Origin: Nanobdellati archaeon
Lineage (GTDB): Archaea; EX4484-52; WAPT01
NCBI GenBank assembly: GCA_015520605.1
Contig: WAPT01000024.1
Span: forward strand, 1 to 64,000
Length of the DNA stretch: 64,000 nucleotides
Direction: 5' to 3'
The notes beneath the pieces were generated by a model. That model was not told the DNA's origin. It saw nothing but the letters and a program-made list of their open reading frames with translations, and ran no database searches. How positions within the stretch are numbered: position 1 is the stretch's first letter; each line of letters opens with the position of its first letter. Position numbers and translations under genes: made by a program. This document shows positions 5,880 to 19,949 of the stretch, one piece after another.

Positions 5880-6856
5880 TCATTTCTTTCCAATCCACAC
5901 GTTTATGAGCATTTCATCTTTAGTCATGCTTCCGTGAGAACCCCGAAGCTTTTCTTCACTTCCAAAAGGATATCTGAAACCAACATTTTTTTCAGCAATC
6001 ACAACAACATTGCCAAAATTTTCGTAACATCTCTTTACAGGAGATCTGTAGATCTCTTCTAACTCGAAAACCTTTGCCGGAATTTTTCTTCTCTTTAAAA
6101 TTTTTTCAACATCTTCCTTTTTCGCTATGTAAAATGCCACCCTCCCCCCACCCACGGGATAACCATTTATGATGGGCAGTTTAACCTCTCTCTTAATTTC
6201 CGTCAGTCCATGATCGCTCATTATTATCAATTTGCTTTTACGCAGGATTTTTTTCCAAAGGATGGAAATGTAAAAATTGATCATTTTTGTTTCAACGCTG
6301 AAGGCCTCATCTTTAAACCTCTCGTGCAAGATCACGTCTATTGAAGGCCAGTAAATGAACGAAAAATCATGATCGCCCAGGGAAAAATCTCGGAAAAATA
6401 ATTTATTCCTCTTATTTCAGCACCCTTGCTTGTGGCTTTCGTAAAAACAGAATCTGCAAATGGTGTGTAATAACAAACAGAAAATCCTTTTTTTGAAAGA
6501 ATTTGGGACAAGGGTCTGAACGGAAACACATCTTTTTTTCTAATTTCCTTTCCGAGTTCTAATTCTTTTCCGGAAATAGTTTTCCAGGGAGGAATTGCCA
6601 CTATTTCATTTTTAAAGCGCATATACCATTCAAGATATCCGTGTTTTTCGGGAGGCAGCAAGGAATGAAATGTGTAGAAAAATGTAGGTGTACTTGAAGG
6701 AAAAACTGTCTGAAAAACAATTTTTCTGAAGTTTTTGCCTGGAGGATTTATTTTGTTTCTCCCCAGACCGTCTATTATTAAAAGAAAAACTTTTTCTTCC
6801 TCAACCATGGAAGGGATTTCTTTCAGGAATTGAAGGATGTTCTCCATAAAACTCAT
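5880..6856 (-). pseudogene. Alkaline phosphatase / type I phosphodiesterase family protein, frameshifted
   Basis: LIIDGLG and VFPSST in 6338-6856; IYWPSIDVILHE, MSDHG and GSHGS in the next frame; one-base shift near 6380. Confidence 0.75.
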
Positions 6857-7062: not shown

Positions 7063-7500
7063 ATGGCGGAAGAAAGCCTAACGATGATTGTTGTTGCGGG
7101 AATACTTGTTGTCACCATAATCGCAATGGCGGCGTTTTATTCAACCTCCGTAATGAAGATAAACATAGACAGGGTAACCCTCACAAAAAATACAGCATCA
7201 ACCATATATTCCCTTCTTCTGGAAGTGGCTTCATCCGAGCAGGGCTATGTGGTTTATGAAGCGATAACACCAAAATTCACCGTTAGTCTCACGGATAGAG
7301 AGCTAACGGTGTTGTTGCATACACCAACGGGGAACATACGGGTCTCCTATCCACACGATATCCCGTACGCTGTGAAATCAACCGTAAGTGGTGTGAATAA
7401 ATTATGCATAGTAAAAAAGATTGTTGACTGCACACCCATGCTGGAGATCTGTAATGCTGCAAACAAAACCTGCTGCAGGACGGTGGAGAACATATGCTAA
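7063..7500 (+). CDS. Pilin-like N-terminally anchored protein
   Basis: Single N-terminal hydrophobic helix and a Cys-rich C-terminus; first gene of the operon. Confidence 0.55.
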   Translation: MAEESLTMIVVAGILVVTIIAMAAFYSTSVMKINIDRVTLTKNTASTIYSLLLEVASSEQGYVVYEAITPKFTVSLTDRELTVLLHTPTGNIRVSYPHDIPYAVKSTVSGVNKLCIVKKIVDCTPMLEICNAANKTCCRTVENIC

Positions 7501-7988
7501 AGGGTAAAGAGGAAAAAGGGAAAAAGGGTGGTTTGCCCTACACGCAGGTTTTCAGTGCAATGATAATCATTGTTATGGCTTCCACAGCACTTCTTGTCTT
7601 TACATCAGAATCAAGCTTTAATGCTGAAATGGTCAATTTACTGGCAGAAAAAAGGATCGTTGAAGCATACGCCAACAAAATTATGACCGATAGCTGTATC
7701 ATAGCCAACACATCAATTGAAGGAAAGAGAATGTTCGTGCTCAACAGAAGCAAGATAGAGGCTCTTGATGACGGAGGGACGCTGGATTGCATAGACAATG
7801 ATAACGTAAAGTACGTGATCAAAATCACCGTATACTCTCCGGATTTTCAGTCAGTGATTATGAAAAAGACCCTGAAAAATGTGGAAAATAAAAACATGAA
7901 CCAGACCATAGTTTATCATGTAACCACCGATGACGGATTTCCGGCTGAAGTTGTTTTCGCTTATCTGAACATAACAAACATAATGTGA
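7494..7988 (+). CDS. Class III signal peptide (pilin-like) protein
   Basis: Basic leader KGKKG followed by a hydrophobic helix. Confidence 0.65.
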   Translation: MLKGKEEKGKKGGLPYTQVFSAMIIIVMASTALLVFTSESSFNAEMVNLLAEKRIVEAYANKIMTDSCIIANTSIEGKRMFVLNRSKIEALDDGGTLDCIDNDNVKYVIKITVYSPDFQSVIMKKTLKNVENKNMNQTIVYHVTTDDGFPAEVVFAYLNITNIM

Positions 7989-8003
7989 AGGTGATTCAGT
8001 TAT

Positions 8004-8690
8004 ATGGCGAAGCTACATGATGGTGGAAAGATAAAGGGTCTGGGTCTGGAGGTGCCGATTTTCCTGCTACTCTTCACACTCAGCACCGTCATTATGGTCT
8101 TTCTGCCGTGGACCGACAATATGAAGAAAATAGGCTCTGTGATTAGGTATTACGCGTTAGAACGAAATGGCACAGAGTATTTGATGTACTTTAACACACG
8201 ACCGATGTTGGATTCAGGAAAACAAAGCACTCTGGAGCTGGATGAACTCCTCGGAATCTATAGTTACGGTGCGAGCCACGTGTTGTTATCTCAGGTAAAG
8301 GGTTTCATTCCCAAATGGGGAGAGATTTACATAGATTATGGAAATGTTTCAGGAAAAATAAATCTCAAAGTTGCAGTTGAAAAAGCACTTCCACCCCTCA
8401 AAAAATATGACAGTTGCACACTACCGTCGTTATTATCTATTGGTAAAAAAAATAGACATTTCGTGAACAGAGTCTTTTATCCCGAAAATGTGGACAGCTT
8501 CACATGGGACAACTATATTAAGTATCCCTCTGATGTAGGGGCGTGTTTCGGGGGTAAATACCTCTTTAAGGAGGAGATGGACGTTCCAACACCCAATTAT
8601 GACCTGTCGGTAAGGTATGTGCTTATCTTCAACAATGTAAAGGAAAATGAAGTTCCCAAAGGAATAAATGTGGTCACGCTGGGCGGGTGA
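8004..8690 (+). CDS. Class III signal peptide (pilin-like) protein
   Basis: KIKG/LGLEVPIFLLLF. Confidence 0.65.
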   Translation: MAKLHDGGKIKGLGLEVPIFLLLFTLSTVIMVFLPWTDNMKKIGSVIRYYALERNGTEYLMYFNTRPMLDSGKQSTLELDELLGIYSYGASHVLLSQVKGFIPKWGEIYIDYGNVSGKINLKVAVEKALPPLKKYDSCTLPSLLSIGKKNRHFVNRVFYPENVDSFTWDNYIKYPSDVGACFGGKYLFKEEMDVPTPNYDLSVRYVLIFNNVKENEVPKGINVVTLGG

Positions 8691-8694
8691 GCGT

Positions 8695-10914
8695 ATGAGC
8701 GCAGGCGAAAAAAACAAGGCATTCGCATCTGTACTTGCTGTTGCAATTCTCCTCATGATGTGGGTGGGATTCGGTTTATGGATGCTCAGCAGAACGTTTG
8801 AGGGAATGCAGATCGTTGAGGGAGAGATCATAAGGAACTTTCTCGAGAAGGGGAAATACGAAATTGCGCTGATAAAAGAAAGTCAGGAGCAGCCCGCATT
8901 ACTGTTCGCCATGATGAAAACCGTTCTGGATTATGCATCTCACGGCATGGTAACATCCCGCATGATAACGGAGAGCGGAATAACAACGGACAATTCTGGA
9001 AGGAAGTTTGTTATGAACGTGAAGGTGAGGCTGGAAGGCACGGACAGAAGCTGTATGCGTGTTGAGAATGTGAACGGGGAGTATATCCTTTACTGGGTTC
9101 AGGCCGAAGGCACGGGAATGCAGGTTTACAAGCCAATAGCTTATTTCAGAGATTTCGACGGATGGCTGACAACAACACCGCTCAAGATAAACTTCGATGT
9201 TGATAACGGGTTTACTGTTGGGGAGGTCATGCTGACGCTTTACTTTATAAAGAGAGGAGAGGTAAGCATAATGTCCGACCACACTCTCCTGAAGAAAGCA
9301 ACCACCACTGGTGTTTATTTTATCAAGGGTGATGCGATCCACAACAATGAAATCGAGCTCATTGCTTCAAAAAACGGCACAGCGAAGCTGAGGGGTGTTG
9401 TCGCCACCATATATAAGTATGGTAATCCCAAGGATTTCAGAGTTGTAGACTGCGCAAGGGACATGATACAGGATCTCATGGAAAAGTATCTCGAGGAATA
9501 CTACACTAAGGGTACTAACTTTTACGGGATGAAATTCGTGGGTTCAAAGCCCAATGTGACATTCGATCCATCCACCAACTACATACACGGCAGCGTCTGG
9601 ATGAGTAAGGGGATGAATGTAACAATCAAGTACAGCGACGGAACTCCTATGGTCTTCCTGCATTCAAATATGTTCACGGAGACTAATCTTTCCACACGGC
9701 TGGGACTTCTGATCGATTACGGGAACACCTTTGTTGATCACATAAACGACTGGCTTGTGAGAAAAATTTTCGAGGAATCAAATAAACAGCTCAAAGATTT
9801 TGCCAAGGTCAGCGGTAAATGGGTATGTGGTCCGCTCACCTGCAAAGATTGCCCCGATGATCCGACACCAACCTACAGTAAAGCTGATTTTGAAAGGGTT
9901 ATCCTCACAGCTCTCAACGAGCTTGAATCGGATCTAAATGCAAGCTCAGCCAGAGGAATTGGATGGCGGTTAATATATTTGAGCAATAAGCACAGCTGGG
10001 AAAGTGTTAATGATAATAAAAAACCGTGTTGTGGCAGGGCGACACCAACTCAAACCACAGTGTTGTCTTATAAAGTTAGAGATGAAAACGCGGTAAACCT
10101 TATATCTCAATTTATATCGTATGGCAGTATCAGACTGAAATTCAAAGAACTGCTGAACAGTGTATGTAAAGACTTAAAGGTAACCAAAGAGGAGTGTGAA
10201 AACCTTGTTTCTAATTGCACTCCGCTTCAGAATGAAAAAGATATTCTATGCGATGGTGCATTTCCATCCTTGGAACTCCACGGTTCCTTTACCGAGCTGG
10301 ACGATTTTTGTCAGAACCCGTACGCCAATGAGCTATGTGAAGCTGTGGAGAACAACTGCAGTTCCGTCCTCAACAATAGGATAACAACAGAGGATTTTTG
10401 TGGGAATTTGAGCGAAGCGTACGGAGTGTATATGAAAAACATCGGAAATCTCATAAATAAACTTCGGGAAAACAGGAACGCTCTAACGATGATGACCATA
10501 ACCGACACGGTTACCGGTGGTTGTGGACTTGAGTTCGAGGGATTGAACAAAAATCTCATTCACGTGGAGAGACAGAAATTAATTCAGGTCGTGGGCGGTG
10601 ACTGTGGCATGTATTGCTGTGACGGTTGTAGAGTAGCGCGGAGTTACTGGCATAAGTGTATTATGGAATACTACCACAGATACGTCTTTAAGGATCTCAA
10701 AATACTCGTGGAGATTATTGACAACGATTACAAGGTATTTGATGTTGAAAAAAACAGGTGGGAGCCCGTGGTGCTGAGATTCATCGTAAATATAAATGTT
10801 GACGACAATAGGTGTGATGGTGACAGGGTCTGTATTTCTAATGACATAATTTCCAACGCTGCGATCACACCACAAACTTTTGGAACTTACTCAGTAACCT
10901 TACCAGAAGAGTGA
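8695..10914 (+). CDS. Large Cys-rich secreted protein with a class III-like signal peptide
   Basis: KNKA/FASVLAVAILLMMW leader; many Cys in the C-terminal half. Confidence 0.6.
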   Translation: MSAGEKNKAFASVLAVAILLMMWVGFGLWMLSRTFEGMQIVEGEIIRNFLEKGKYEIALIKESQEQPALLFAMMKTVLDYASHGMVTSRMITESGITTDNSGRKFVMNVKVRLEGTDRSCMRVENVNGEYILYWVQAEGTGMQVYKPIAYFRDFDGWLTTTPLKINFDVDNGFTVGEVMLTLYFIKRGEVSIMSDHTLLKKATTTGVYFIKGDAIHNNEIELIASKNGTAKLRGVVATIYKYGNPKDFRVVDCARDMIQDLMEKYLEEYYTKGTNFYGMKFVGSKPNVTFDPSTNYIHGSVWMSKGMNVTIKYSDGTPMVFLHSNMFTETNLSTRLGLLIDYGNTFVDHINDWLVRKIFEESNKQLKDFAKVSGKWVCGPLTCKDCPDDPTPTYSKADFERVILTALNELESDLNASSARGIGWRLIYLSNKHSWESVNDNKKPCCGRATPTQTTVLSYKVRDENAVNLISQFISYGSIRLKFKELLNSVCKDLKVTKEECENLVSNCTPLQNEKDILCDGAFPSLELHGSFTELDDFCQNPYANELCEAVENNCSSVLNNRITTEDFCGNLSEAYGVYMKNIGNLINKLRENRNALTMMTITDTVTGGCGLEFEGLNKNLIHVERQKLIQVVGGDCGMYCCDGCRVARSYWHKCIMEYYHRYVFKDLKILVEIIDNDYKVFDVEKNRWEPVVLRFIVNINVDDNRCDGDRVCISNDIISNAAITPQTFGTYSVTLPEE

Positions 10915-11683
10915 GAATAATTAGAATCAACACGGAAAGCAGCAGCACGAGATACGGAGGAAGCTTCCTCTGGATTCTCACGGTTTTTATTTCGTTTTTT
11001 TTCAGCACCTCTATTTCTTTTTTTTCAAGTCTTTTCCATGGATGCACAACAACCGAAGAACTAAGTTTAAGTAAATTCATTAAGATTCTAAGCTTTGAGA
11101 GGGACAAAGAATACCTACATACACCATTAGAAGAGATCCATATTGTCTCCGCGGGAAATTCACCAACCAGGTTATGAGTTACCTCAACCTCAAGTGTTGC
11201 AAATTCCGGGACGGTGTAAAAAATTGTAATCAAAAAAACAATTTTTAAAAAAATTTCAAGTACACCGAACCTGTATGAAAGCATACAACCAATTACGATT
11301 AAAATGATAGAAAAAAAACAAATCCAACTACTACAAAATGTATTATTTCCAAATCCGAACACTCCCTTAATCTTTTCAGATAAGAAGAAGATCGAGGAAA
11401 TTATTGCAAGTGACACCAAAAAAGCAATATGTTTTGCGATTCCCAGAAATAACATCGAACACAAAAAAATAGCAAGAAACCCTGCCGAATATCCCGAAAC
11501 ATACAGTAAAGATGTTTCGAAAGCAGAGGTCACAGATTTCCAACCGAACAACCACCCCACGGTTACTACAGTTGCTACGTACAGGGAGAGTATGCTCGCG
11601 ATCGTAGCATTATAGAAATCTCTGAAGAAGTGAATTGCAAGCGCGTAAAGCAGAATTACACCACCGACCTGAACCAGCCTCAT
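10865..11683 (-). CDS. Prepilin/preflagellin peptidase (A24)-like membrane protein, GxGD motif altered to GFGN
   Basis: Multi-TM protein; FRDFYNATI resembles the first-Asp motif; C-terminal EIEVLKK...VRIQRKLPPYL resembles the FlaK/EppA tail; ATG overlaps the upstream stop codon. Confidence 0.5.
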   Translation of the reverse strand: MRLVQVGGVILLYALAIHFFRDFYNATIASILSLYVATVVTVGWLFGWKSVTSAFETSLLYVSGYSAGFLAIFLCSMLFLGIAKHIAFLVSLAIISSIFFLSEKIKGVFGFGNNTFCSSWICFFSIILIVIGCMLSYRFGVLEIFLKIVFLITIFYTVPEFATLEVEVTHNLVGEFPAETIWISSNGVCRYSLSLSKLRILMNLLKLSSSVVVHPWKRLEKKEIEVLKKNEIKTVRIQRKLPPYLVLLLSVLILIILTLLVRLLSKFQKFVV

Positions 11684-13065
11684 CTCACCTCGTACCTCCC
11701 GCACAAATCAGAAATCAACTCACCGAAATTATCCCTGAAGAACTCGATGTTCTCAAAAACATAAGTGAAGAACAGTTTTTTGAACCTGCAATCCTCGCTT
11801 ATGAAGTGGTATGGCAGCACGGATTTCGCAACACCGTAATTCTCTCTCTTGCAAAAGCCGCAGAATCCAATAAAAGGACATGATGAGCACTCAGCGGCTA
11901 CATCCTGCGGATAAATCATGGACTGGAGGAGATTAATGTAAATTTTCTTGTAAGGATCCCTTAGAGATCCTAAAAAAAACTCGGGCAGGGTTTTCATGGA
12001 GTCGCAGGGATAAACGGTACCGTCGGGAGCTATTGTGAGATGCGTTATACCTGCCCCGCAGACATCCCGGAGGCAGGAATATTGACGCACCGTGGTAAAC
12101 ACATTTTTCAGGTAATATTCCACGAACTTGTCTCTGAATCTTATTCCGTGTTTTTTAAGCTTCACTACGTTATTTATGCTTCCCTTAACAAACGATAAAA
12201 ATTCTTCAGCACTCAAAAAAAGATTCTCGTTGCTTTGGGCACGTCCCGCGTTCATCACGGGCCTGTAAAATATGAACGGCCTTTTCCATCTCAAATATTC
12301 CTTGATCACCGCATCAGCACCGCCGTTCTCCATGGTGTGCTTGGTTATGGTGGCTGTGGAGGTTGAGCCCGCCCCTGCTTCTTCGAGTAGCTGGATGGAA
12401 CAAATAACATCCTCATAAGTGCCGTGTCCGTTCGGGTATATTCTGTGTTTATCGTGGATCTCTTTCGGACCGTCCAGCGATATCGAGATACTCATTCCGT
12501 TCTTGGCGGCCCATCGCGCGATGTCTTTATCGATGAGAGTACCATTCGATACCACGATTTTCCTCACAATTCTCTTTCCTTTTTTCCTCGCCGTCCCCTC
12601 AAGCTCCTGCAGGAACTCCTGCATCAAGTCAAACCTGAGGAACGGTTCCCCTCCCTGAAACTCAATCCCAATGTATTTTTTGGGAAGTTTTTCAATGAAC
12701 CTCACACAATCTCTCATGATTTCTCCGTCCATCTCCACGAACCTTTCGGGTGAGGATTCCGCATGGCAATACCTACATGCAAGATTACACCTCAGCGTTA
12801 GATTTATCTGAACGGTCACCATCGGCATCGAATGAATATAGCCCAACCTTTTAATTATGTTCTTCAACACCCTGTTGATATTTCCCTCCGTTATGACAAT
12901 GTTTCTTTCTTCTAACTTTTTCAGAAGGTCATCACTCACCTCTCCCCTCCTGAGCATCCTCAGCTCCTTTTTGTCCAGAATTATCCAGTCTCCGAATCTT
13001 GTGGTCAGGAGCACTTTTCCATTGCTTAATTTTTTCTCGAAACATTCATTGGGTAGGTAGCGCAT
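11680..13065 (-). CDS. Radical SAM/SPASM maturase, HxsB-like
   Basis: CNLACRYC, EFQGGEP, CLRDVCGAG...GTVYPCD, CSSCPFIGFCGFC; N-terminal LLTTRFGDW extension as in HxsB. Confidence 0.8.
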   Translation of the reverse strand: MRYLPNECFEKKLSNGKVLLTTRFGDWIILDKKELRMLRRGEVSDDLLKKLEERNIVITEGNINRVLKNIIKRLGYIHSMPMVTVQINLTLRCNLACRYCHAESSPERFVEMDGEIMRDCVRFIEKLPKKYIGIEFQGGEPFLRFDLMQEFLQELEGTARKKGKRIVRKIVVSNGTLIDKDIARWAAKNGMSISISLDGPKEIHDKHRIYPNGHGTYEDVICSIQLLEEAGAGSTSTATITKHTMENGGADAVIKEYLRWKRPFIFYRPVMNAGRAQSNENLFLSAEEFLSFVKGSINNVVKLKKHGIRFRDKFVEYYLKNVFTTVRQYSCLRDVCGAGITHLTIAPDGTVYPCDSMKTLPEFFLGSLRDPYKKIYINLLQSMIYPQDVAAECSSCPFIGFCGFCKRENYGVAKSVLPYHFISEDCRFKKLFFTYVFENIEFFRDNFGELISDLCGRYEVR

Positions 13066-13079
13066 CCCACCACCCTATT

Positions 13080-14003
13080 TTATTGGGTTATGGGCACGAT
13101 TTCATCAGCGCCGAAGTAATCGATATAAGAGTACCATACCCCCCAGCATTTACTCCTCATCACGCATTTCTCGCAGGGTTCCAGCAGCCCGTAATTGTCC
13201 TCGAAACGCCTGTTTATTATCTGTTTCGTGGGTGATTTGTAACCGTAAATGGTCTTCGGCTGCGGTGCGACAAACCTCCACAGGTGTTCCGGAAGGACGC
13301 AGTAGGGGAACCCGTAGAACTTAACTCTCAGTCCCGAGCTTTCCACGATCTCCGCGGCTCTGCTGAGGTTTTCGGTGATATCCGTCATTCTCACCGCAAA
13401 GAGCTCGGCATTTCTCAGAGCGTTTCCCGTTATGTCGAGAGCATGGAAGGAAAAAGCTTTAACATCGTCAAACATGCTCAGCACAAGGCTTGCGATTCTC
13501 TCCAGCTCCGTATAGTTTGCTTTCGTGACTATCGTCTTCAGCTCAACGTTCATCCCCGCATCGAGAGCGTTTCTCACACCATGAATTGTTTCTCTGAAGC
13601 TCCCTCTCGCTCCCGTGACCCAGTCGTGTTTTTCCTCCTTCCAGGAGTGAAGCGCCACTATAACATGAATTATAGGATAAGCTGAAAGTCTCTCGGCAAA
13701 ACAGCGCGAAGATAACCTCCTGCCGTTGGTGAGGAGAACGTAACTCAGCCCGGGCCTTCTCGATTTTATCCTCTCAAGTATCTCAAAGAAGTCGTTCCTC
13801 ACGGTTGGCTCGCCACCGGAAATTTCAAGGATTTGTATGTCTTCTGGCAGTGAAAGAACAAAATTCACAAGCTCGTTGGTACTTATTTTTTCCTTTTTCG
13901 CCCTCTCTCCGGAGCTCACCGCGCATATTTTGCAGTTATTGTTGCACTGATACCCGAAAACACAGTAGGCCTTTTTTATTTTCATCGTGCTCATATTCTT
14001 CAC
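13080..14003 (-). CDS. Radical SAM protein, HxsC-like
   Basis: CNNNCKIC, SGGEPT, LLTNGR, GFPYCVLP, CEKCVMRSKCWG. Confidence 0.8.
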   Translation of the reverse strand: MKNMSTMKIKKAYCVFGYQCNNNCKICAVSSGERAKKEKISTNELVNFVLSLPEDIQILEISGGEPTVRNDFFEILERIKSRRPGLSYVLLTNGRRLSSRCFAERLSAYPIIHVIVALHSWKEEKHDWVTGARGSFRETIHGVRNALDAGMNVELKTIVTKANYTELERIASLVLSMFDDVKAFSFHALDITGNALRNAELFAVRMTDITENLSRAAEIVESSGLRVKFYGFPYCVLPEHLWRFVAPQPKTIYGYKSPTKQIINRRFEDNYGLLEPCEKCVMRSKCWGVWYSYIDYFGADEIVPITQ

Positions 14004-14057
14004 ACATGAATGAATGCAAACTGAACTGTCCTTCTCAACAAAACCATCTGCGATATT

Positions 14058-14351
14058 TTAGTGTCCCCCATTACTCCAGTTACTCCAATCACACCATTCA
14101 CTCCAATCGTGCCAGTTTATCCAGTTGTTCCAGTGGTTGTTCAACCAGTTGTTGTACTCATTTTGGAGATCCTTCCAGCTCTGCTCGTTTGTAACGCAGT
14201 TATGGTGAGTGGATTGGGTGTGTGCAAGTTTTGAAAGGAGAGGGAGGGAACACACCGCAGTAAACAGGAGAAACATGTTCAGCGCCCCTTCACAGTCATC
14301 CTTGGATACCAGCATGGATCTCATTTTTCTAAACCGATCTCTCCAGCTCAT
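14058..14351 (-). CDS. Putative RiPP precursor with Trp-Xaa-Asn/Asp/Glu repeats
   Basis: C-terminus YNNWLNNHWNNWINWHDWSEWCDWSNWSNGGH; GAAGGTG SD-like site upstream; lies between the HxsD-like and HxsC-like genes. Confidence 0.75.
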   Translation of the reverse strand: MSWRDRFRKMRSMLVSKDDCEGALNMFLLFTAVCSLPLLSKLAHTQSTHHNCVTNEQSWKDLQNEYNNWLNNHWNNWINWHDWSEWCDWSNWSNGGH

Positions 14352-14700
14352 TCTCTACACCTTCATAATCTTCAGACTGTTTTGATATGTCCGGTATCAC
14401 CCCCTTTATCGCCAGCTCCAGCAGGAGTTTTCTTACATCTCCAAACCTGCGTAGATTCATCTCTTCCATCTCCGCCTGCAGCAGTTCAGCAAAGAACGCA
14501 TCAATGAGTTCCTCTGTGTTCTCCCCTTCAGGCGGCTTTAACTCCACAGTGATCTCCTCGATACCGTCTCCGAGCACACGAACTCTGCATGTCTCAAGCA
14601 TTCTGTATGCAGCTCTCATAACAGTGCTTTTTGAATAAAGTGTCGAAGGGAGCTTTATTTTAACAATACCGTCGGCAACTTCAACAGTTTTTTTATCCAT
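14329..14700 (-). CDS. HxsD-like accessory protein
   Basis: LYSKSTVMRAAY...FFAELL...GDVRKLLLELA pattern typical of HxsD; about 123 aa. Confidence 0.7.
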   Translation of the reverse strand: MDKKTVEVADGIVKIKLPSTLYSKSTVMRAAYRMLETCRVRVLGDGIEEITVELKPPEGENTEELIDAFFAELLQAEMEEMNLRRFGDVRKLLLELAIKGVIPDISKQSEDYEGVENELERSV

Positions 14701-14759
14701 ATTCCGATTATGGAATGGGGAATTTTTATTTTTAATTGATGGAAAGGGATAACCCAGTA

Positions 14760-14960
14760 TCATTTCGGCAACAGACCGGCCACATACTTCCCAATACCCA
14801 CGATCTTGCCAAGCCACCACCAGTTGGATTGAATGGCACTGATGATGGGGGATGCCACAGTTTCAAGCAGGATGTATGCGAGGGCGATACAGAGTATAAA
14901 CACGACAATATAAATTATCAGCATTATCTGCCCGCCGACCAGAGCCTTTCTTCTGACCAT
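14760..14960 (-). CDS. Small class III signal peptide protein
   Basis: MVRRKA/LVGGQIMLIIYIVVF. Confidence 0.65.
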   Translation of the reverse strand: MVRRKALVGGQIMLIIYIVVFILCIALAYILLETVASPIISAIQSNWWWLGKIVGIGKYVAGLLPK

Positions 14961-14972
14961 AAAATCGACCTT

Positions 14973-15128
14973 TCAGCCTCCAGCCTTTTCCCAAGGGAGG
15001 TCTGCGAGACCGAAGATTTTGTCCACAGAACCTTTACCTAATTTTATTATTATAAGTACCACGGCAGTCATTAATAATATAATAAAGATGATCTCCACCC
15101 AGGAGAGACCTTTATTGCTTCCGCGCAT
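14973..15128 (-). CDS. Small pilin-like protein (51 aa, absent from the ORF track)
   Basis: Translated by hand: MRGSNKG/LSWVEIIFIILLMTAVVLIIIKLGKGSVDKIFGLADLPWEKAGG; Glu at +5. Confidence 0.75.
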   Translation of the reverse strand: MRGSNKGLSWVEIIFIILLMTAVVLIIIKLGKGSVDKIFGLADLPWEKAGG

Positions 15129-15634
15129 CAGCACTCACCTGTTTTCCCACAAGTAGAATTAATGACTATACATATGCTCTGACAATTATCTTTGGTAATT
15201 GTGATATTAGTTTCCTTACCGTCTGCGGGTGCGGTAATTTCTGCGGTGCAGGTGCCGTCATCGGACACGGTGCACTCAGCTTCCGGCTTATCATTCGATT
15301 TTATAGTTACCGTGCCGCTTGTGGTGCCTGTGAGTTTCAGGTTTATAACGCACTTTCCATCGTTGTTCTTTGTTATGTCCTTCAGCTCAATTGAACATGA
15401 TGTGCTGCTGCCACCCCCCACGGTTTCATTGACTTTCTCCCCTATGCCCACGGTTGTCTGATTTATCGATTGTTTTGTGGATTTGAACGCAGGAAGCAGA
15501 GTACCGCCGTATACCCGTATTATAATCGCAGCCATTATCATGAGTATAAGAAGAATTATTATTATTTCCAAAAATGAAAGACCTTTTTTATACCAATCCC
15601 GTATGTTTTGTGTAAACATTTTGCGTTGGGGCAT
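15128..15634 (-). CDS. Pilin-like protein with a beta-rich, Cys/Thr-rich C-terminal domain
   Basis: KKG/LSFLEIIIILLILM; Glu at +5. Confidence 0.75.
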   Translation of the reverse strand: MPQRKMFTQNIRDWYKKGLSFLEIIIILLILMIMAAIIIRVYGGTLLPAFKSTKQSINQTTVGIGEKVNETVGGGSSTSCSIELKDITKNNDGKCVINLKLTGTTSGTVTIKSNDKPEAECTVSDDGTCTAEITAPADGKETNITITKDNCQSICIVINSTCGKTGEC

Positions 15635-15838
15635 TTACCATTTACCTCCTGTTATGTTCTTCATACCTTCCTGTACCGTCTGGTTAGATTTTTCTATACC
15701 CGAACTGACGAGTTCTCCGAACTTGTGCAGGTTGGCACCCCCTATTTTAATAATAATATATCCCATAACCATGGCGATTATGATAACTATAACTATCCAG
15801 AACACCTTCTCAAAACCCTTTCGCACACTTGCCATCAA
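15635..15838 (-). CDS. Small class III signal peptide protein
   Basis: VRKG/FEKVFWIVIVIIIA. Confidence 0.7.
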   Translation of the reverse strand: MMASVRKGFEKVFWIVIVIIIAMVMGYIIIKIGGANLHKFGELVSSGIEKSNQTVQEGMKNITGGKW

Positions 15839-16023
15839 ATCACCACTCCGAATTTCGCCCTTGCAACATCCATAATTTTGTCAAAAATACTCTTTATTTT
15901 TTCATCAAGTTTAACATTCCAGTGTTTGAAAAGTACAATAAAAATAAAGGTCAGAAACACAAGCAACAGTATAATAAACACAACTTCTATATGAGATGTG
16001 CCCTTCTTTCCCTGCTTGACCAT
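15835..16023 (-). CDS. Small pilin-like protein
   Basis: GKKG/TSHIEVVFIILLL; Glu at +5. Confidence 0.75.
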   Translation of the reverse strand: MVKQGKKGTSHIEVVFIILLLVFLTFIFIVLFKHWNVKLDEKIKSIFDKIMDVARAKFGVVI

Positions 16024-16057
16024 AACTTATAAATGTGATACTCACCTTAAATATATT
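16024..16057. promoter_or_regulatory. Compact bidirectional promoter
   Basis: CTTATAAA on + about 25 nt before ATG 16058; TATATTTAAG on - about 25 nt before ATG 16023. Confidence 0.5.
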
Positions 16058-16195
16058 ATGGTATTTCTCAGCACGAATAGTACAACATACAGAAAGGGTC
16101 TGCAGCTGTCGATATCTCTTCTCATAACTCTCCTGTTCGGAATCCTGCTCCTCTACGTGCTCTTTCACACAGCATTGACATATTTTGGAAGGTAG
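16058..16195 (+). CDS. Small class III signal peptide protein
   Basis: TYRKG/LQLSISLLITLLFGILLL. Confidence 0.6.
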   Translation: MVFLSTNSTTYRKGLQLSISLLITLLFGILLLYVLFHTALTYFGR

Positions 16196-16201
16196 TGGTT
16201 C

Positions 16202-16417
16202 ATGCCGGGAGGCACATTTAAAAGAAGGAAAGGTCTTGAATTGGGCCTAACGGAATTCGGGCTGATAATGCTGGCACTTTTCATAGGTATGATTATTTTT
16301 GTTTTTTTGACCAAGGAAGGCGGATTTCTGGATAAAGTCAGAGAAACGGGATGCGACCTCAGCAGTTTCATAACAGGTTTTCTGAAAATCATCGGTATCA
16401 ATACGTCCATTTGCTAA
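16202..16417 (+). CDS. Small class III signal peptide protein
   Basis: KRRKG/LELGLTEFGLIMLALFIG. Confidence 0.7.
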   Translation: MPGGTFKRRKGLELGLTEFGLIMLALFIGMIIFVFLTKEGGFLDKVRETGCDLSSFITGFLKIIGINTSIC

Positions 16418-16425
16418 TAAACGAG

Positions 16426-19400
16426 TCACGCCCCAATAATTCTGAATTTGATCCGGATTCCCTCAGTTTCAAATTCATCTCCGTCCTCCACAGTTTCAAA
16501 CCTAACGGATATATTGGTGTCCTTTTCAATCATTTCCTTCCATCTCTCCACGAACTCCTTACTTCCCTCAACAGCAACCACAGCCTTATCCTCAAACCTC
16601 AGACCAAGTTCCTTCCTCGCGAGCTGAATTCTCCTTATGAATTCCCTTGCGATACCCTCCTCCTTAAGCTCGGGTGTTAGTTCAACCTTAAGAAGCACGG
16701 CGGTGTTCTTCACCACTCTGCCGTCATAGCCTTCGGGCAGGGAAACCAACTTCACTCTAACATCGATCATGTCTCCTGTTAGTTCAAAACCACCAATCTC
16801 GATTCTTCCATCTTTTTCAAGAGCTTCGAGCACATCCTTTCCGTTTAGAGACTTGAGCGCCTCCACAACCTCTCTAGTTCTCTTTCCGAATCTGGGTCCT
16901 ATAACATCATACCTTGGTCTCACTTCGTAATCTAATTGGATGTCATCCCTTATTTTAACTCTCTTCACATTCGCGAGTTTCATGATTATCTCCTTTAGAT
17001 TACCAAGAGCTTCGGTGAGCTCATTCGCGGAGAGCACAACCTCTTCGAGAGGCCACCTGAGCCTTATATTGCGGCTCTGCCTCATGGAGTTTACCTCCTC
17101 CACCACACCCATGACAAGATCCATTTTGCTTTCCAGAGTTTCGTCGATTTCCTTTTCGTTCCATGAAGGCCAGGACAGCAGATGTATGGATCCCTCTCTT
17201 ACAATCTCTCTGAAAACCTTGAGATAGAGGTACTCAGCAACATACGGTGTAAACGGCGCAAGCATTTTCAACACTTCGAAGTAAGCTCTGGAGATGACGT
17301 AATCCATGGCATCCCTGTCCACACCTTCATCGTACCTCTCCTTTGCTATTTTCAGGTAGAATCGCGAGAAGTCTTCCATCACGAAGTTCACGATTTCCCT
17401 GGCAGCGTAATGGAAGTGGAAGGTGTCTATGTACTCAGTAACTCTTTTTATGGTTGAGTTCAACCTCGAGAGCAACCATCTGTCTTCGGCCCTGCTTACA
17501 TACTGTTGGTTATCAAGCCTTATCTTTACACCGTACATGTCGATGAAATTGGAAATATTGACAAGAATGTTCATGAAGCGGAAAAGCTCCTTTGCTTCAT
17601 TCATGCTGAACTTGTGCGTTTCCCATGGAGCTGTGCTGTAGCATACGTAAAGCCTTAGAACATCAGCACCAAGCTGCTCGAAGGCCTCCTCAGCCGAGAT
17701 CACGTTGCCCAAGCTTTTGCTCATCTTCTCTCCTTTTTCATCAAGAACCCATCCGTTCATGCACACAACATCGTATGGCCTCTCTTTGAAAGTTGCAGCT
17801 GACATGAAAAGCATCGCGTGGAACCATCCTCTTATTTGATCCTGAGATTCATCAACCAGATCAACGCGCCACAACTTGTTAAACAGACCGCTATCATTGT
17901 AAGGGTAGCCGAGTGATGCCCAAGGAGCGACACCGCTCTCCACCCATATATTTATTATGTCTGGAATCCTTTTCATTTCCCCTCCACACTTCTCGCAGCG
18001 CAGCACAACTTTATCAACGACATGCTTGTGAAGATCATCAAGCTTAACTTCATTTATCATTCTCTCATCCAACTCCTTTTTGCTGCCGATGGCAATCATG
18101 TGTCCACAGTTCTTACACTCCCAGATTGGGATCGGAGCTCCCCAGTAGCGCTGCGTGGATATACACCAATCCTCTTCATTCTCCACCCAATGCTTCATTC
18201 TCTCCCTTGCAAAATCAGGGAGCCACATTGTTTCTTCGTTGAATTTGAGCATGAGATCCTTTATCGGATCGATGCGGAAGAACCACTGGTCGGTGGTGCG
18301 ATAAATTAAAGGTGTCTTGCACCTCCAGCAGAGCGGGTAGCTGTGTACTATTCTCTCAGCATGGAAGAGCAAACCTTTTGCTCTCAGATGTTCTATTATC
18401 TCCTTATCGGCATCCTTCGCAAACTTACCTTTAAGCCATCCAGCCTCGCTGGTAAACCTGCCCTCATCATCAACAGGAGAGAGCACGGGCAGGTCATAAT
18501 GCTGCCCGAGCTTGTTATCCTCAGGCCCGTGGCCGGGGGCACAGTGCACTATCCCTGTACCGACATTCATCGTTACCATGTGGCCGAATACTTCCTCTTC
18601 ACTCTCCTTACTTTCGATCTCTTTCTTGACCATAACCTTAGAAGCAACTACTTTCTTCAGAATCGGTACAGACAGCACTACCCTATGGGCTCTCCCGCTC
18701 TTTGCAGCTTCCTGCTGAACCGGCAGCTCTGACATGAGGGGCTCATATTCTATCCCGTCAAGATCCTTACCCTTTAAGACTTCCACAACCTCATAACTTT
18801 CAATTCCCGCTCTTTTCATCACATCTTCAAGCCTTTTCTCAGCAAGAATGAGAATCTCATCATTGACCTTCACTTTAACGTAGTTCTCGTCTGGATGCAC
18901 AACGAGAGCTACATTGGCTGGCAGAGTCCACGGTGTGGTGGTCCACGCAAGGAGGTATTCATTCTCCTTGTCCTTAACCTTGAACTTAACATAAATGGAA
19001 GGGTCTGTGACATTCTTGTATGAATCCGTTGCCTCATACCCCGAAATGGAGGTCTGACACCTCGGGCACCAGTGGATTGGTTTTTTACCCTTGACCATCA
19101 ACCCTTCATCGAAGAGCTTCTTGACGGTCCACCATGTGCTCTCTATATAGTATGGCTCATAAGTCAAGTAGGGCTGTAGCCAACCCTTCCAGGCTGCAAG
19201 ATCTTTATAGTAGTTCATCCACTCGGTAAGATTCTGAGTGGCAAACTCCTTACACATCTTTATAAAGTTCTCAACACCAACTTTTTCTTCAATCTCCTTT
19301 TTGGATTGTATGCCAAGTCTCTTTTCCATCATGTTCTCAATTGGCAGTCCGTGGCAGTCAAAACCCGGCTGGAACCAGACAGCATAACCATTCATGAACT

Positions 19401-19608
19401 TAAACTTACCCCAGAGATCCTTGAAGACTATGGTCATGGCATGCCCGGCGTGGGGTGGCGCATTTGCATACGGAGGACCATCAAGTAGATAGAATTTCTT
19501 ACCCTTTTTCTTTAGATTCTCCTCGAAGTCCACAATTTTTTCTGGGACTTTGTTCTTCTCCCAGTACGCCTTAACTTCCTGCTCGATCTTTCTGAAATCG
19601 TACTGCAT
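16426..19608 (-). CDS. ileS: Isoleucine--tRNA ligase
   Basis: DGPPYANAPPHAGH (HIGH variant), GFDCHGLPIE, WTTTPWTLPAN, DQIRGWF, KMSKS. Confidence 0.97.
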   Translation of the reverse strand: MQYDFRKIEQEVKAYWEKNKVPEKIVDFEENLKKKGKKFYLLDGPPYANAPPHAGHAMTIVFKDLWGKFKFMNGYAVWFQPGFDCHGLPIENMMEKRLGIQSKKEIEEKVGVENFIKMCKEFATQNLTEWMNYYKDLAAWKGWLQPYLTYEPYYIESTWWTVKKLFDEGLMVKGKKPIHWCPRCQTSISGYEATDSYKNVTDPSIYVKFKVKDKENEYLLAWTTTPWTLPANVALVVHPDENYVKVKVNDEILILAEKRLEDVMKRAGIESYEVVEVLKGKDLDGIEYEPLMSELPVQQEAAKSGRAHRVVLSVPILKKVVASKVMVKKEIESKESEEEVFGHMVTMNVGTGIVHCAPGHGPEDNKLGQHYDLPVLSPVDDEGRFTSEAGWLKGKFAKDADKEIIEHLRAKGLLFHAERIVHSYPLCWRCKTPLIYRTTDQWFFRIDPIKDLMLKFNEETMWLPDFARERMKHWVENEEDWCISTQRYWGAPIPIWECKNCGHMIAIGSKKELDERMINEVKLDDLHKHVVDKVVLRCEKCGGEMKRIPDIINIWVESGVAPWASLGYPYNDSGLFNKLWRVDLVDESQDQIRGWFHAMLFMSAATFKERPYDVVCMNGWVLDEKGEKMSKSLGNVISAEEAFEQLGADVLRLYVCYSTAPWETHKFSMNEAKELFRFMNILVNISNFIDMYGVKIRLDNQQYVSRAEDRWLLSRLNSTIKRVTEYIDTFHFHYAAREIVNFVMEDFSRFYLKIAKERYDEGVDRDAMDYVISRAYFEVLKMLAPFTPYVAEYLYLKVFREIVREGSIHLLSWPSWNEKEIDETLESKMDLVMGVVEEVNSMRQSRNIRLRWPLEEVVLSANELTEALGNLKEIIMKLANVKRVKIRDDIQLDYEVRPRYDVIGPRFGKRTREVVEALKSLNGKDVLEALEKDGRIEIGGFELTGDMIDVRVKLVSLPEGYDGRVVKNTAVLLKVELTPELKEEGIAREFIRRIQLARKELGLRFEDKAVVAVEGSKEFVERWKEMIEKDTNISVRFETVEDGDEFETEGIRIKFRIIGA

Positions 19609-19949
19609 GGTGATCACACAGCTTAATGTTTAAGGGAGGAAAATTTTTAAGGGTAAACGAGACATGAGGAAAAACAAAATCACATTGTTGAATGAAAATT
19701 ATTTTAATTTTTAAAAGGTTTTAAAAGAAAAATTCCCGTAAACAGAACTGCGTACTGCATACTGATATTAAGTTAAGGAGCACAAGCTCGAGGTTAGTAA
19801 TATTCCTTTACTCTCTGAAGTCGGAATTGTATTGACGGTTTAAGACTGCCAATGGTTTGAAGGATAAGAAACAAAAAGTGAGAGATTCTACGAGAAAAAT
19901 TAATCTGGTCAATCGGTGTTAGCAGAAATAATGTTGAGGTGTCTGAAAT

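Follow-up and report, generated by a model that had tools for sequence, protein, structure and literature searches.

A predicted Trp-repeat variant of the Hxs system with a pseudo-prepilin peptidase in a pilin-like gene locus of a Nanobdellati archaeon

Hxs systems and the archaeal cassette

Bacterial HXS is an anti-phage defense system. Its effector HxsA is an exported protein with a signal peptide (Li et al., Nat Commun 2026, PMC13128918). According to the available part of that paper, cleavage of the HxsA N-terminus differs from ordinary signal-peptide removal and requires HxsB, HxsC and HxsD; 99.7% of the systems occur in Pseudomonadota and 99.6% have the gene order D-B-C-A, and the words archaea, protease and pili are absent from the text available. 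Here, we describe an Hxs-like cassette of a Nanobdellati archaeon (GTDB lineage Archaea; EX4484-52; WAPT01). The stretch analyzed, hereafter called the window, comprises positions 1–64,000 of contig C24 (WAPT01000024.1), which belongs to a genome of 863 kb in 27 contigs that is 90.7% complete. Its DNA is contained in hydrothermal-vent metagenome runs, and the window also encodes a ribosomal protein cluster and isoleucyl-tRNA synthetase (IleRS). The cassette consists of five genes on the minus strand and is flanked by 11 genes with pilin-type (class III-like) N-termini, one of which encodes a protein of 748 amino acids (aa) and lies tail-to-tail with the cassette. The main features are listed below in the order of transcription of the cassette; a slash marks the start of the hydrophobic stretch in N-terminal motifs.

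14329–14700, minus strand: HxsD-like protein of 123 aa, with its ATG at 14700 (TIGR03976, 32 bits)
14058–14324, minus strand: precursor peptide, 88 aa, with an alternative ATG at 14351 and the C-terminus NNWLNNHWNNWINWHDWSEWCDWSNWSNGGH
13080–14003, minus strand: HxsC-like radical S-adenosylmethionine (SAM) enzyme, 307 aa (TIGR03977, 183 bits)
11680–13065, minus strand: HxsB-like radical SAM/SPASM maturase, 461 aa (TIGR03978; PF04055, PF13186)
10865–11683, minus strand: 272-aa membrane protein, truncated dead paralog of the class III signal (prepilin) peptidase (hhalign, Arc_PepC)
8668–10914, plus strand: 748-aa Cys-rich surface protein with the class III-like N-terminus KNKA/FASVLAVAILL, tail-to-tail with the cassette

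As far as the bacterial system is described in the available text, the cassette resembles it in having two radical SAM enzymes, HxsD and a precursor with a period-3 repeat and a hydrophobic N-terminal export signal. TIGR03976 was the sole family matched by the HxsD-like protein, and its cut-off is 50 bits; the HxsD match of a related locus reaches 52 bits, and the motifs LYP...RAAYR and EE..ARRYAD are conserved in the relatives. The best match of the HxsC-like enzyme was TIGR03977 (cut-off, 267.9 bits), and the HxsB-like enzyme scored 250 bits with TIGR03978 (cut-off, 370 bits), the best of 75 families, followed by PapB with 143 bits. Hence the scores of all three window proteins lie below the NCBI cut-offs. 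The cassette also differs from bacterial HXS in its gene order (D-A-C-B versus D-B-C-A), in its repeat (Trp-Xaa-Xaa versus His-Xaa-Ser), in having no peptidoglycan-binding domain, in its archaeal host and in a fifth gene, which encodes a pseudo-prepilin peptidase.

Two other groups of described systems invite comparison. In the cyclophane synthases that form triceptides, as presented in the partial sources at hand, a SPASM-type radical SAM enzyme is likewise encoded beside a precursor with an aromatic residue at every third position. However, the window enzymes score far better on the HxsB and HxsC models than on those of the cyclophane synthases (YhhB, 75 bits; WgkB, 75 bits). The second group consists of the NCBIfam variants HxsA4/HxsA3, HxsC4 and HxsD-like. 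In our survey of the phylum, loci L038, L050 and L039 matched HxsA4 (one of them over the cut-off) and HxsD or HxsD-like, and their HxsB-like enzyme is 30–33% identical to that of the window. The window precursor, in contrast, matched no NCBIfam model, including those of HxsA, and has no tandem His-Xaa-Ser repeat; the variant loci have neither the pseudo-peptidase nor the 748-aa partner that distinguish the window type, and sometimes contain a true A24 peptidase. PADLOC detected nothing in the cassette beyond a generic radical SAM similarity to viperins. A literature search on radical SAM enzymes with DPANN pili, on pseudo- or inactive prepilin peptidases and on HxsB/HxsC, from which subscription journals and supplements were excluded, found no such arrangement described, and the word ‘radical’ is absent from the available text of a 2026 survey of archaeal type IV filaments (PMC13705601).

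Loci of the same type as that of the window (type 1) have the order HxsD, Trp-repeat precursor, HxsC (at times doubled or fused), HxsB and pseudo-peptidase. Their precursors consist of a leader, an invariant Gly, a hydrophobic stretch of ~17 residues, an invariant Cys and a C-terminal Trp-Xaa-Xaa repeat. Alignment of ten type 1 precursors showed G13, C43, W65, W68, W77 and W80 to be invariant. In these ten, the leader is Lys-rich and 12–40 residues long, the Gly usually lies within EKTG, the hydrophobic run is rich in Gly and Ala, and Trp recurs at every third position. The succession of Gly and a hydrophobic run resembles the layout of a class III signal. A repeat-bearing small open reading frame (ORF) was present in every complete locus, either between HxsD and HxsC or after HxsB. 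We classify the cassette as a new variant of the Hxs system, one that has five genes and a Trp repeat.

The membrane protein encoded after HxsB

The ATG of the membrane gene (11683–11681) overlaps the stop codon of the HxsB-like gene (11682–11680) as ATGA, exactly as stated in the initial annotation, in which the gene was described as prepilin-peptidase-like. The homology implied by that name was borne out, and the activity was not. By itself, the 272-aa protein matched no Pfam or NCBIfam family. Among nine members of the family encoded at the same position, Arc_PepC (PF06819), which forms the C-terminal domain of A24 peptidases in archaea, was detected in five, once over the cut-off (38 versus 23.4 bits), and PF01478 in none. 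A profile search of 1.84 billion representatives yielded ~18 family members of 258–304 aa and then a long tail of 341–383-aa proteins, which align from their residue ~60–120 on; PF01478 was found in 14 and PF06819 in 17 of the 20 tail proteins sampled. When the family was compared with 21 A24 peptidases using hhalign, its positions 10–293 were aligned onto peptidase positions 70–356 (269 columns; probability, 99.7%; E, 3.7e-25), and comparison with four local A24 peptidases gave 96.9% across the C-terminal 93 columns. This homology, over ~270 columns, takes in the Arc_PepC domain and the last membrane helix.

The same alignments show the loss of both catalytic residues. The first ~70 residues of the peptidases, which include catalytic Asp 1 (invariant D23), have no counterpart in the membrane family, and the GxGD aspartate (D83) is aligned to Ser or Thr (Thr27 in the window protein). 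Across 13 aligned family members, no conserved Asp was found in the membrane part, and the conserved residues (L..G...AE, R and Q) all lie in the Arc_PepC-like domain. The local true A24 peptidases retain D25 and D87, and the true peptidase of this genome, with PF01478 and PF06819, is encoded on contig C10. Because both catalytic aspartates are lost, the 272-aa protein is not a working prepilin peptidase; a prepilin peptidase proper was thus ruled out by the absent Asp 1 region and the Ser/Thr at Asp 2. Instead, its residues identify it as a truncated, dead paralog of the class III signal peptidase. Archaeal peptidases with the A24 and Arc_PepC domains, which we take to be of the PibD/FlaK/EppA type, also differ from it in possessing PF01478 and in that it is encoded inside a radical SAM cassette.

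An AlphaFold model of the 272-aa protein (predicted local distance difference test score (pLDDT), 70.5) comprises six helices, then a small beta domain and, at the end, one more helix. A Foldseek search of the PDB with this model gave nothing at E ≤ 0.001. In the wide VIA-align search, the best Z scores were 7.7 and 6.5, with only small domains or helices matched, and no A24 or FlaK chain was among the matches listed; these outcomes do not tell against homology. A word-indexed homolog search with the family gave two matches, both annotated as ‘hypothetical protein [Nanoarchaeota archaeon]’. The 3′ ends of the membrane gene and the 748-aa gene overlap by 50 nucleotides (nt) at 10865–10914, and an overlap of identical length was observed in the congener G001 (L029:11426–11475).

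Conservation of the cassette and its tail-to-tail partner

All 42 species genomes of the GTDB phylum, which contains a single order, were sampled, and the search for HxsB-like genes covered 61 genomes, namely these 42 and 19 outgroup genomes. Hxs loci were mapped by BLAST and profile searches, initially in 13 long loci and then in 15 more. HxsB-like genes were found in 29 of the 61 genomes (28 of the phylum and one outgroup). The pseudo-peptidase (E ≤ 1e-15) was present in 20 phylum genomes, all of them HxsB-positive, and in none of the 14 HxsB-negative phylum genomes or the 19 outgroup genomes. Its gene follows HxsB directly at 18 of the 22 places; at two, it is on the opposite strand at a distance of ~2 kb, and at two its contig has no HxsB.

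The position of the 748-aa gene is similarly constant. An ortholog of this gene lies tail-to-tail with the pseudo-peptidase gene at 19 of the 22 places, in four families (f1, f5, f6 and f8), and two further places are cut by contig ends. The pairing persists even at G034:C63 and G035:C36, where HxsB sits 2 kb away. Between these families, HxsB is 30–46% and the large protein 20–28% identical, and the genes upstream of HxsD are unrelated from family to family. The 748-aa family was found in 28 of the 42 phylum genomes; its members share invariant residues over a core of ~620 aa, conserved Cys residues and a class III-like N-terminus, and in several genomes further pilin-like genes precede the ortholog. 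The large gene stands at the head or the end of a pilin-like operon. The initial annotation had proposed a synteny comparison and named unlinked sites for the cassette and the pilin cluster in relatives as evidence against their association. For the 748-aa and membrane proteins, the relatives show linkage. The five small pilin-like genes upstream of HxsD, on the other hand, are kept in the genomes of the genus (3/3) and are absent from that position in other families.

Comparison of two congeneric genomes illustrates how the cassette may come and go. Genome G014 has no genes from HxsD through the membrane gene, and its 748-aa ortholog lies 390 nt from the flank genes; in G009, a 5.6-kb cassette is present between the same flanks. 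These data indicate that the whole cassette, including the pseudo-peptidase, is acquired or lost in one piece next to the 3′ end of the 748-aa gene.

The 748-aa protein itself matched no Pfam family. Its model, with a mean pLDDT of 62, shows an N-terminal helix of 75 residues followed by beta-rich domains. Foldseek comparisons gave whole-chain template modeling (TM) scores of 0.06–0.11 and target-normalized TM scores of 0.25–0.46, the latter only to beta-sandwich modules of the carbohydrate-binding module, CUB and enterotoxin C-domain types. We take from this model a lead, and nothing more, that the protein may be adhesin-like. Assignment to DUF7286 was considered and rejected: the best ESM Atlas matches (0.85–0.87; hypothetical archaeal clusters, DUF7286) scored too low to count, and DUF7286 was not confirmed by Pfam.

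The other loci (type 2) encode canonical His-Xaa-Ser precursors with up to 17 repeats, which match NCBIfam HxsA4, one of them over the cut-off (61 versus 55 bits), and have neither the pseudo-peptidase nor the 748-aa partner. Genes for true A24 peptidases with both Asp residues are in or near 3 of the 12 type 2 loci, and in one case the peptidase gene is immediately upstream of HxsD, its stop codon overlapping the HxsD start; most of the other nine loci are on contigs of 2.8–8 kb, so this rate is uncertain. Type 2 loci (L036–L040 and L049–L055) have two HxsD-like genes and scattered HxsC-like genes, and the His-Xaa-Ser precursor of the outgroup archaeon (L039:9256–10536) is 426 aa long with a large C-terminal domain. 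Other observations concern individual loci. The HxsD-like protein of G009 (L032:6378–7043) has a C-terminal Cys-rich extension with weak matches, far below the cut-offs, to RnfB and CdhE-like (Fe-S/corrinoid-type) models. A peptidase U32 gene is in or beside Hxs loci at L031:6815–7873, L037:11822–12829 and L045:1020–2069, and in family f6 such a gene lies between HxsD and the precursor; the U32 protein is a possible further processing enzyme.

Pilin-like neighbors and the place of action of the peptide

The remaining genes with pilin-type N-termini and the element preceding the cassette are as follows.

7063–7500, plus strand: 145-aa protein (ORF) encoded at the beginning of the left operon; N-terminus hydrophobic, canonical KG motif absent
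7494–7988, plus strand: 164-aa class III-signal-like (pilin-like) protein, KKG/GLPYTQVFSAMIIIV, with orthologs in G002 and G001
8004–8690, plus strand: 228-aa class III-signal-like protein, KIKG/LGLEVPIFLLLF
14721–14735, minus strand: A/T-rich TATA-like box, TTAAAAATAAAAATT, 21–35 nt upstream of the HxsD ATG, in the spacer 14701–14759
14760–14960, minus strand: 66-aa pilin-like protein, ALVG/GQIMLIIY
14973–15134, minus strand: 53-aa pilin-like protein, NKG/LSWVEIIF
15128–15634, minus strand: 168-aa pilin-like protein with a Cys-rich C-terminal domain, KKG/LSFLEIII
15635–15838, minus strand: 67-aa pilin-like protein, RKG/FEKVFWIV
15835–16023, minus strand: 62-aa pilin-like protein, first of the minus-strand array, KKG/TSHIEVVF, with a TATA-like box upstream
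16058–16195, plus strand: 45-aa pilin-like ORF, YRKG/LQLSISLL
16202–16417, plus strand: 71-aa pilin-like protein, RRKG/LELGLTEF, tail-to-tail with IleRS

The physical layout agrees with the initial annotation in every coordinate of the ORF listing and on direct reading: the cassette is embedded in the pilin-like locus, four genes converge on it from the left and two diverge to the right, and the five-gene array (16023 to 14760) runs into the HxsD-like gene across a gap of exactly 59 nt, since the stop codon of the last pilin gene reaches to 14760 and the HxsD-like gene begins with the ATG at 14700. By eye, eight of the 11 genes fit the pattern of a short basic N-terminus, [KR][GA] and ~20 hydrophobic residues. 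The exceptions are 7063–7500, which has no such motif, 14760–14960 (LVG/G) and the 748-aa gene (NKA/F, with a longer leader); three of the four left genes have the [KR][GA]/hydrophobic motif, and the five array proteins have short basic N-termini ending in KG or VG before ~20 hydrophobic residues. The 7063–7500 protein matched no Pfam or NCBIfam family; its orthologs in the congeners are 92% and 52% identical, with weaker homologs in L033, L043 and L046. The 45-aa ORF at 16058–16195 is conserved in both congeners (89% identity in G002; a 45-aa ORF in G001), and the 168-aa protein gave a sub-threshold match to a prepilin-type domain model (17.7 bits; cut-off, 86). A loose motif scan flagged 76 of 1056 greedy ORFs genome-wide, in several clusters, so pilin-like genes are common in this genome; the density at the locus (11/16 genes) is far over that background.

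To the right, IleRS is encoded at 16426–19617, and small class III genes beside IleRS recur in another family (L038 and L042). This adjacency in two families suggests an old IleRS-pilin neighborhood, into or beside which both types of Hxs cassette settled. To the left, two adjacent minus-strand ORFs of 172 and 151 aa at 5880–6856 correspond to one gene of 322 aa in the congener G002 (L028:3421–4389); the window copy shifts frame near residue 157, which indicates a frameshifted gene or an assembly error.

Transcription of the cassette bears on its relation to the pilin array. The TTAAAAAT box at 14735–14728 is part of a longer A/T run and is read as a promoter element on the general pattern of archaeal promoters. 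The run at 14735–14721 is identical in G002, and a similar box is present in the otherwise diverged spacer of G001. The first pilin gene (16023), the gene at 7063 and IleRS are each preceded by a comparable box, ~20–40 nt ahead of the start. Since the box is conserved in the genus and its distance to the start is the same as for other first genes, the caveat of the initial annotation that the cassette might have its own promoter is probably right; this putative promoter would give a short leader or none. No oligo-T run was seen in the 59-nt spacer, so that transcription may read through from the pilin genes.

Considering that the pseudo-peptidase is built into the cassette and that the cassette occupies a conserved site beside a pilin-type surface protein, we judge that the balance tips, if slightly, towards a functional tie between the cassette and class III-signal surface machinery. 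Relatives across the phylum keep the pairing of peptide and pilus-type genes, and the peptide therefore probably works at the cell surface. The explanation that accounts best for the locus as a whole, to which we give an even chance, is an Hxs variant with a membrane pseudo-enzyme that acts at the cell surface with or beside pilin-like proteins. Under this explanation, HxsB and HxsC, together with HxsD, would act on the precursor in the cytoplasm and cross-link its period-3 Trp repeat. The pseudo-peptidase, having retained the non-catalytic body and the Arc_PepC domain of an enzyme that normally recognizes pilin N-termini, would hold the hydrophobic segment of the precursor at the membrane. 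The matured peptide would then be exported to the cell surface and act with or beside pilin-like proteins of the neighboring operons, where it may serve in host contact or, by analogy with bacterial HXS, in blocking virus entry.

Several observations weigh against such a tie. The pilin-like proteins matched no curated pilin or archaellin family of Pfam or NCBIfam at E ≤ 0.01, so the label ‘pilin-like’ refers to the N-terminal motif only, and no pilus ATPase, platform protein or active peptidase is encoded within the window; matches to T2SSE over the family cut-off are on contigs C1, C7, C8 and C10, the last of which also carries the peptidase. The precursor motif EKTG/VV (DDCEG/AL in this genome) has no class III basic residue at position −2, and the AxA-like site after the ~17-residue hydrophobic stretch fits an ordinary Sec signal equally well. 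For the predicted complex of the pseudo-peptidase with the precursor, the score was 0.52 against 0.00 for the best control; the runs agreed in at least 78% of contacts, and the partner pLDDT was at least 53. Of 157 solved complexes, 116 reached the mark used, as did 2 of 215 mismatched pairs; only 18 of the 157, together with both mismatches, did so at ≤0.60. The prediction therefore supports the proposed binding weakly and is given little weight, the more so as one partner is a membrane protein and the other a hydrophobic peptide. As for synteny, the 748-aa family also occurs in five HxsB-negative genomes, and in G017 the pseudo-peptidase is on another contig while HxsB directly faces the large gene. 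Moreover, tail-to-tail genes cannot be co-transcribed, congruent identity matrices (Spearman, 0.73–0.83) fit simple co-inheritance, and the counts are not independent because the genomes are related.

A serious, though less likely, alternative is that the cassette and the pilin-like genes are independent neighbors. The cassette would then be a self-contained accessory or defense module, comparable to anti-phage HXS of bacteria, in a variable surface-protein island, its pseudo-peptidase would serve the cassette only (in leader handling, export or immunity), and no pilus-like structure would be involved. In favor of this view are two congeners with the same flanks, of which one has the complete cassette and the other none of it, the cassette's own TATA-like box and the five genomes with the 748-aa family and no cassette. 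Against it, the tail-to-tail partner is constant at 19 of 22 places in four families, whose genes on the other flank differ, and the pairing is kept where HxsB has moved 2 kb. Pilin-like genes are many and scattered here, and genes for type IV filaments are seldom in a single locus in DPANN archaea according to the available part of the 2026 survey (PMC13705601). Likewise, bacterial HXS, as far as it is described in the text available, does not need a pilus (PMC13128918), whereas the membrane protein of this cassette descends from a pilin-processing enzyme.

A second alternative, which we regard as improbable, treats the precursor as a pilin-type subunit: it would be cut after the invariant Gly by the active class III peptidase of this genome, with the pseudo-peptidase as an adaptor, and built into a fiber that exposes the cross-linked Trp repeat. 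In all ten precursors the Gly immediately precedes the hydrophobic stretch, but position −2 lacks a basic residue, and the precursor of this genome has none anywhere near the Gly. With 12–40 residues the leader is long, and for a pilin helix the hydrophobic stretch is short. Genes of the A24 type are found with three different Hxs architectures in archaea, and the weak complex prediction would also fit, although the partner protein in question cannot cleave. The initial annotation had further suggested that the peptide may be displayed on or delivered by a pilus-like structure. Display on a pilus is a minority reading that we consider unlikely. The same low standing applies to its specific form, in which the peptide would be delivered through the class III signal pathway, with the dead peptidase paralog as escort, and mounted on or beside a pilus-like fiber headed by the 748-aa protein. 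Finally, the proposal that the radical SAM enzymes modify the neighboring pilins or the 748-aa protein, the Trp-repeat ORF not being their substrate, has physical proximity and the conserved Cys residues of the 748-aa protein in its favor and is very improbable, since every complete locus has a repeat-bearing small ORF of the Trp or His-Xaa-Ser type, no pilin at the locus carries such a Trp or His repeat and the five upstream pilins are genus-specific.

HXS was shown to be an anti-phage defense only in 2026, and by the available account the route of export and trimming of its effector is non-canonical and unknown (PMC13128918). An Hxs variant acting at the cell surface with or beside pilin-like proteins would matter in this respect, as its pseudo-peptidase is a concrete candidate for the membrane handling of Hxs effectors, and the membrane gene is in itself a rare example of a prepilin-peptidase pseudo-enzyme. 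The archaeal variant would have Trp instead of His and Ser as the target of its repeat chemistry, and it occupies a fixed site beside pilin-type surface genes across a whole DPANN phylum. The locus thereby offers a connection, open to testing, of peptide modification with the surface structures that tiny symbiotic archaea depend on. If the peptide were indeed located on or beside a pilus-like fiber, it would be the first modified pilus component of the RiPP type (peptides made by ribosomes and modified after translation), and an archaeal counterpart of HXS would stand at a surface structure that serves in host contact or that viruses exploit to enter.

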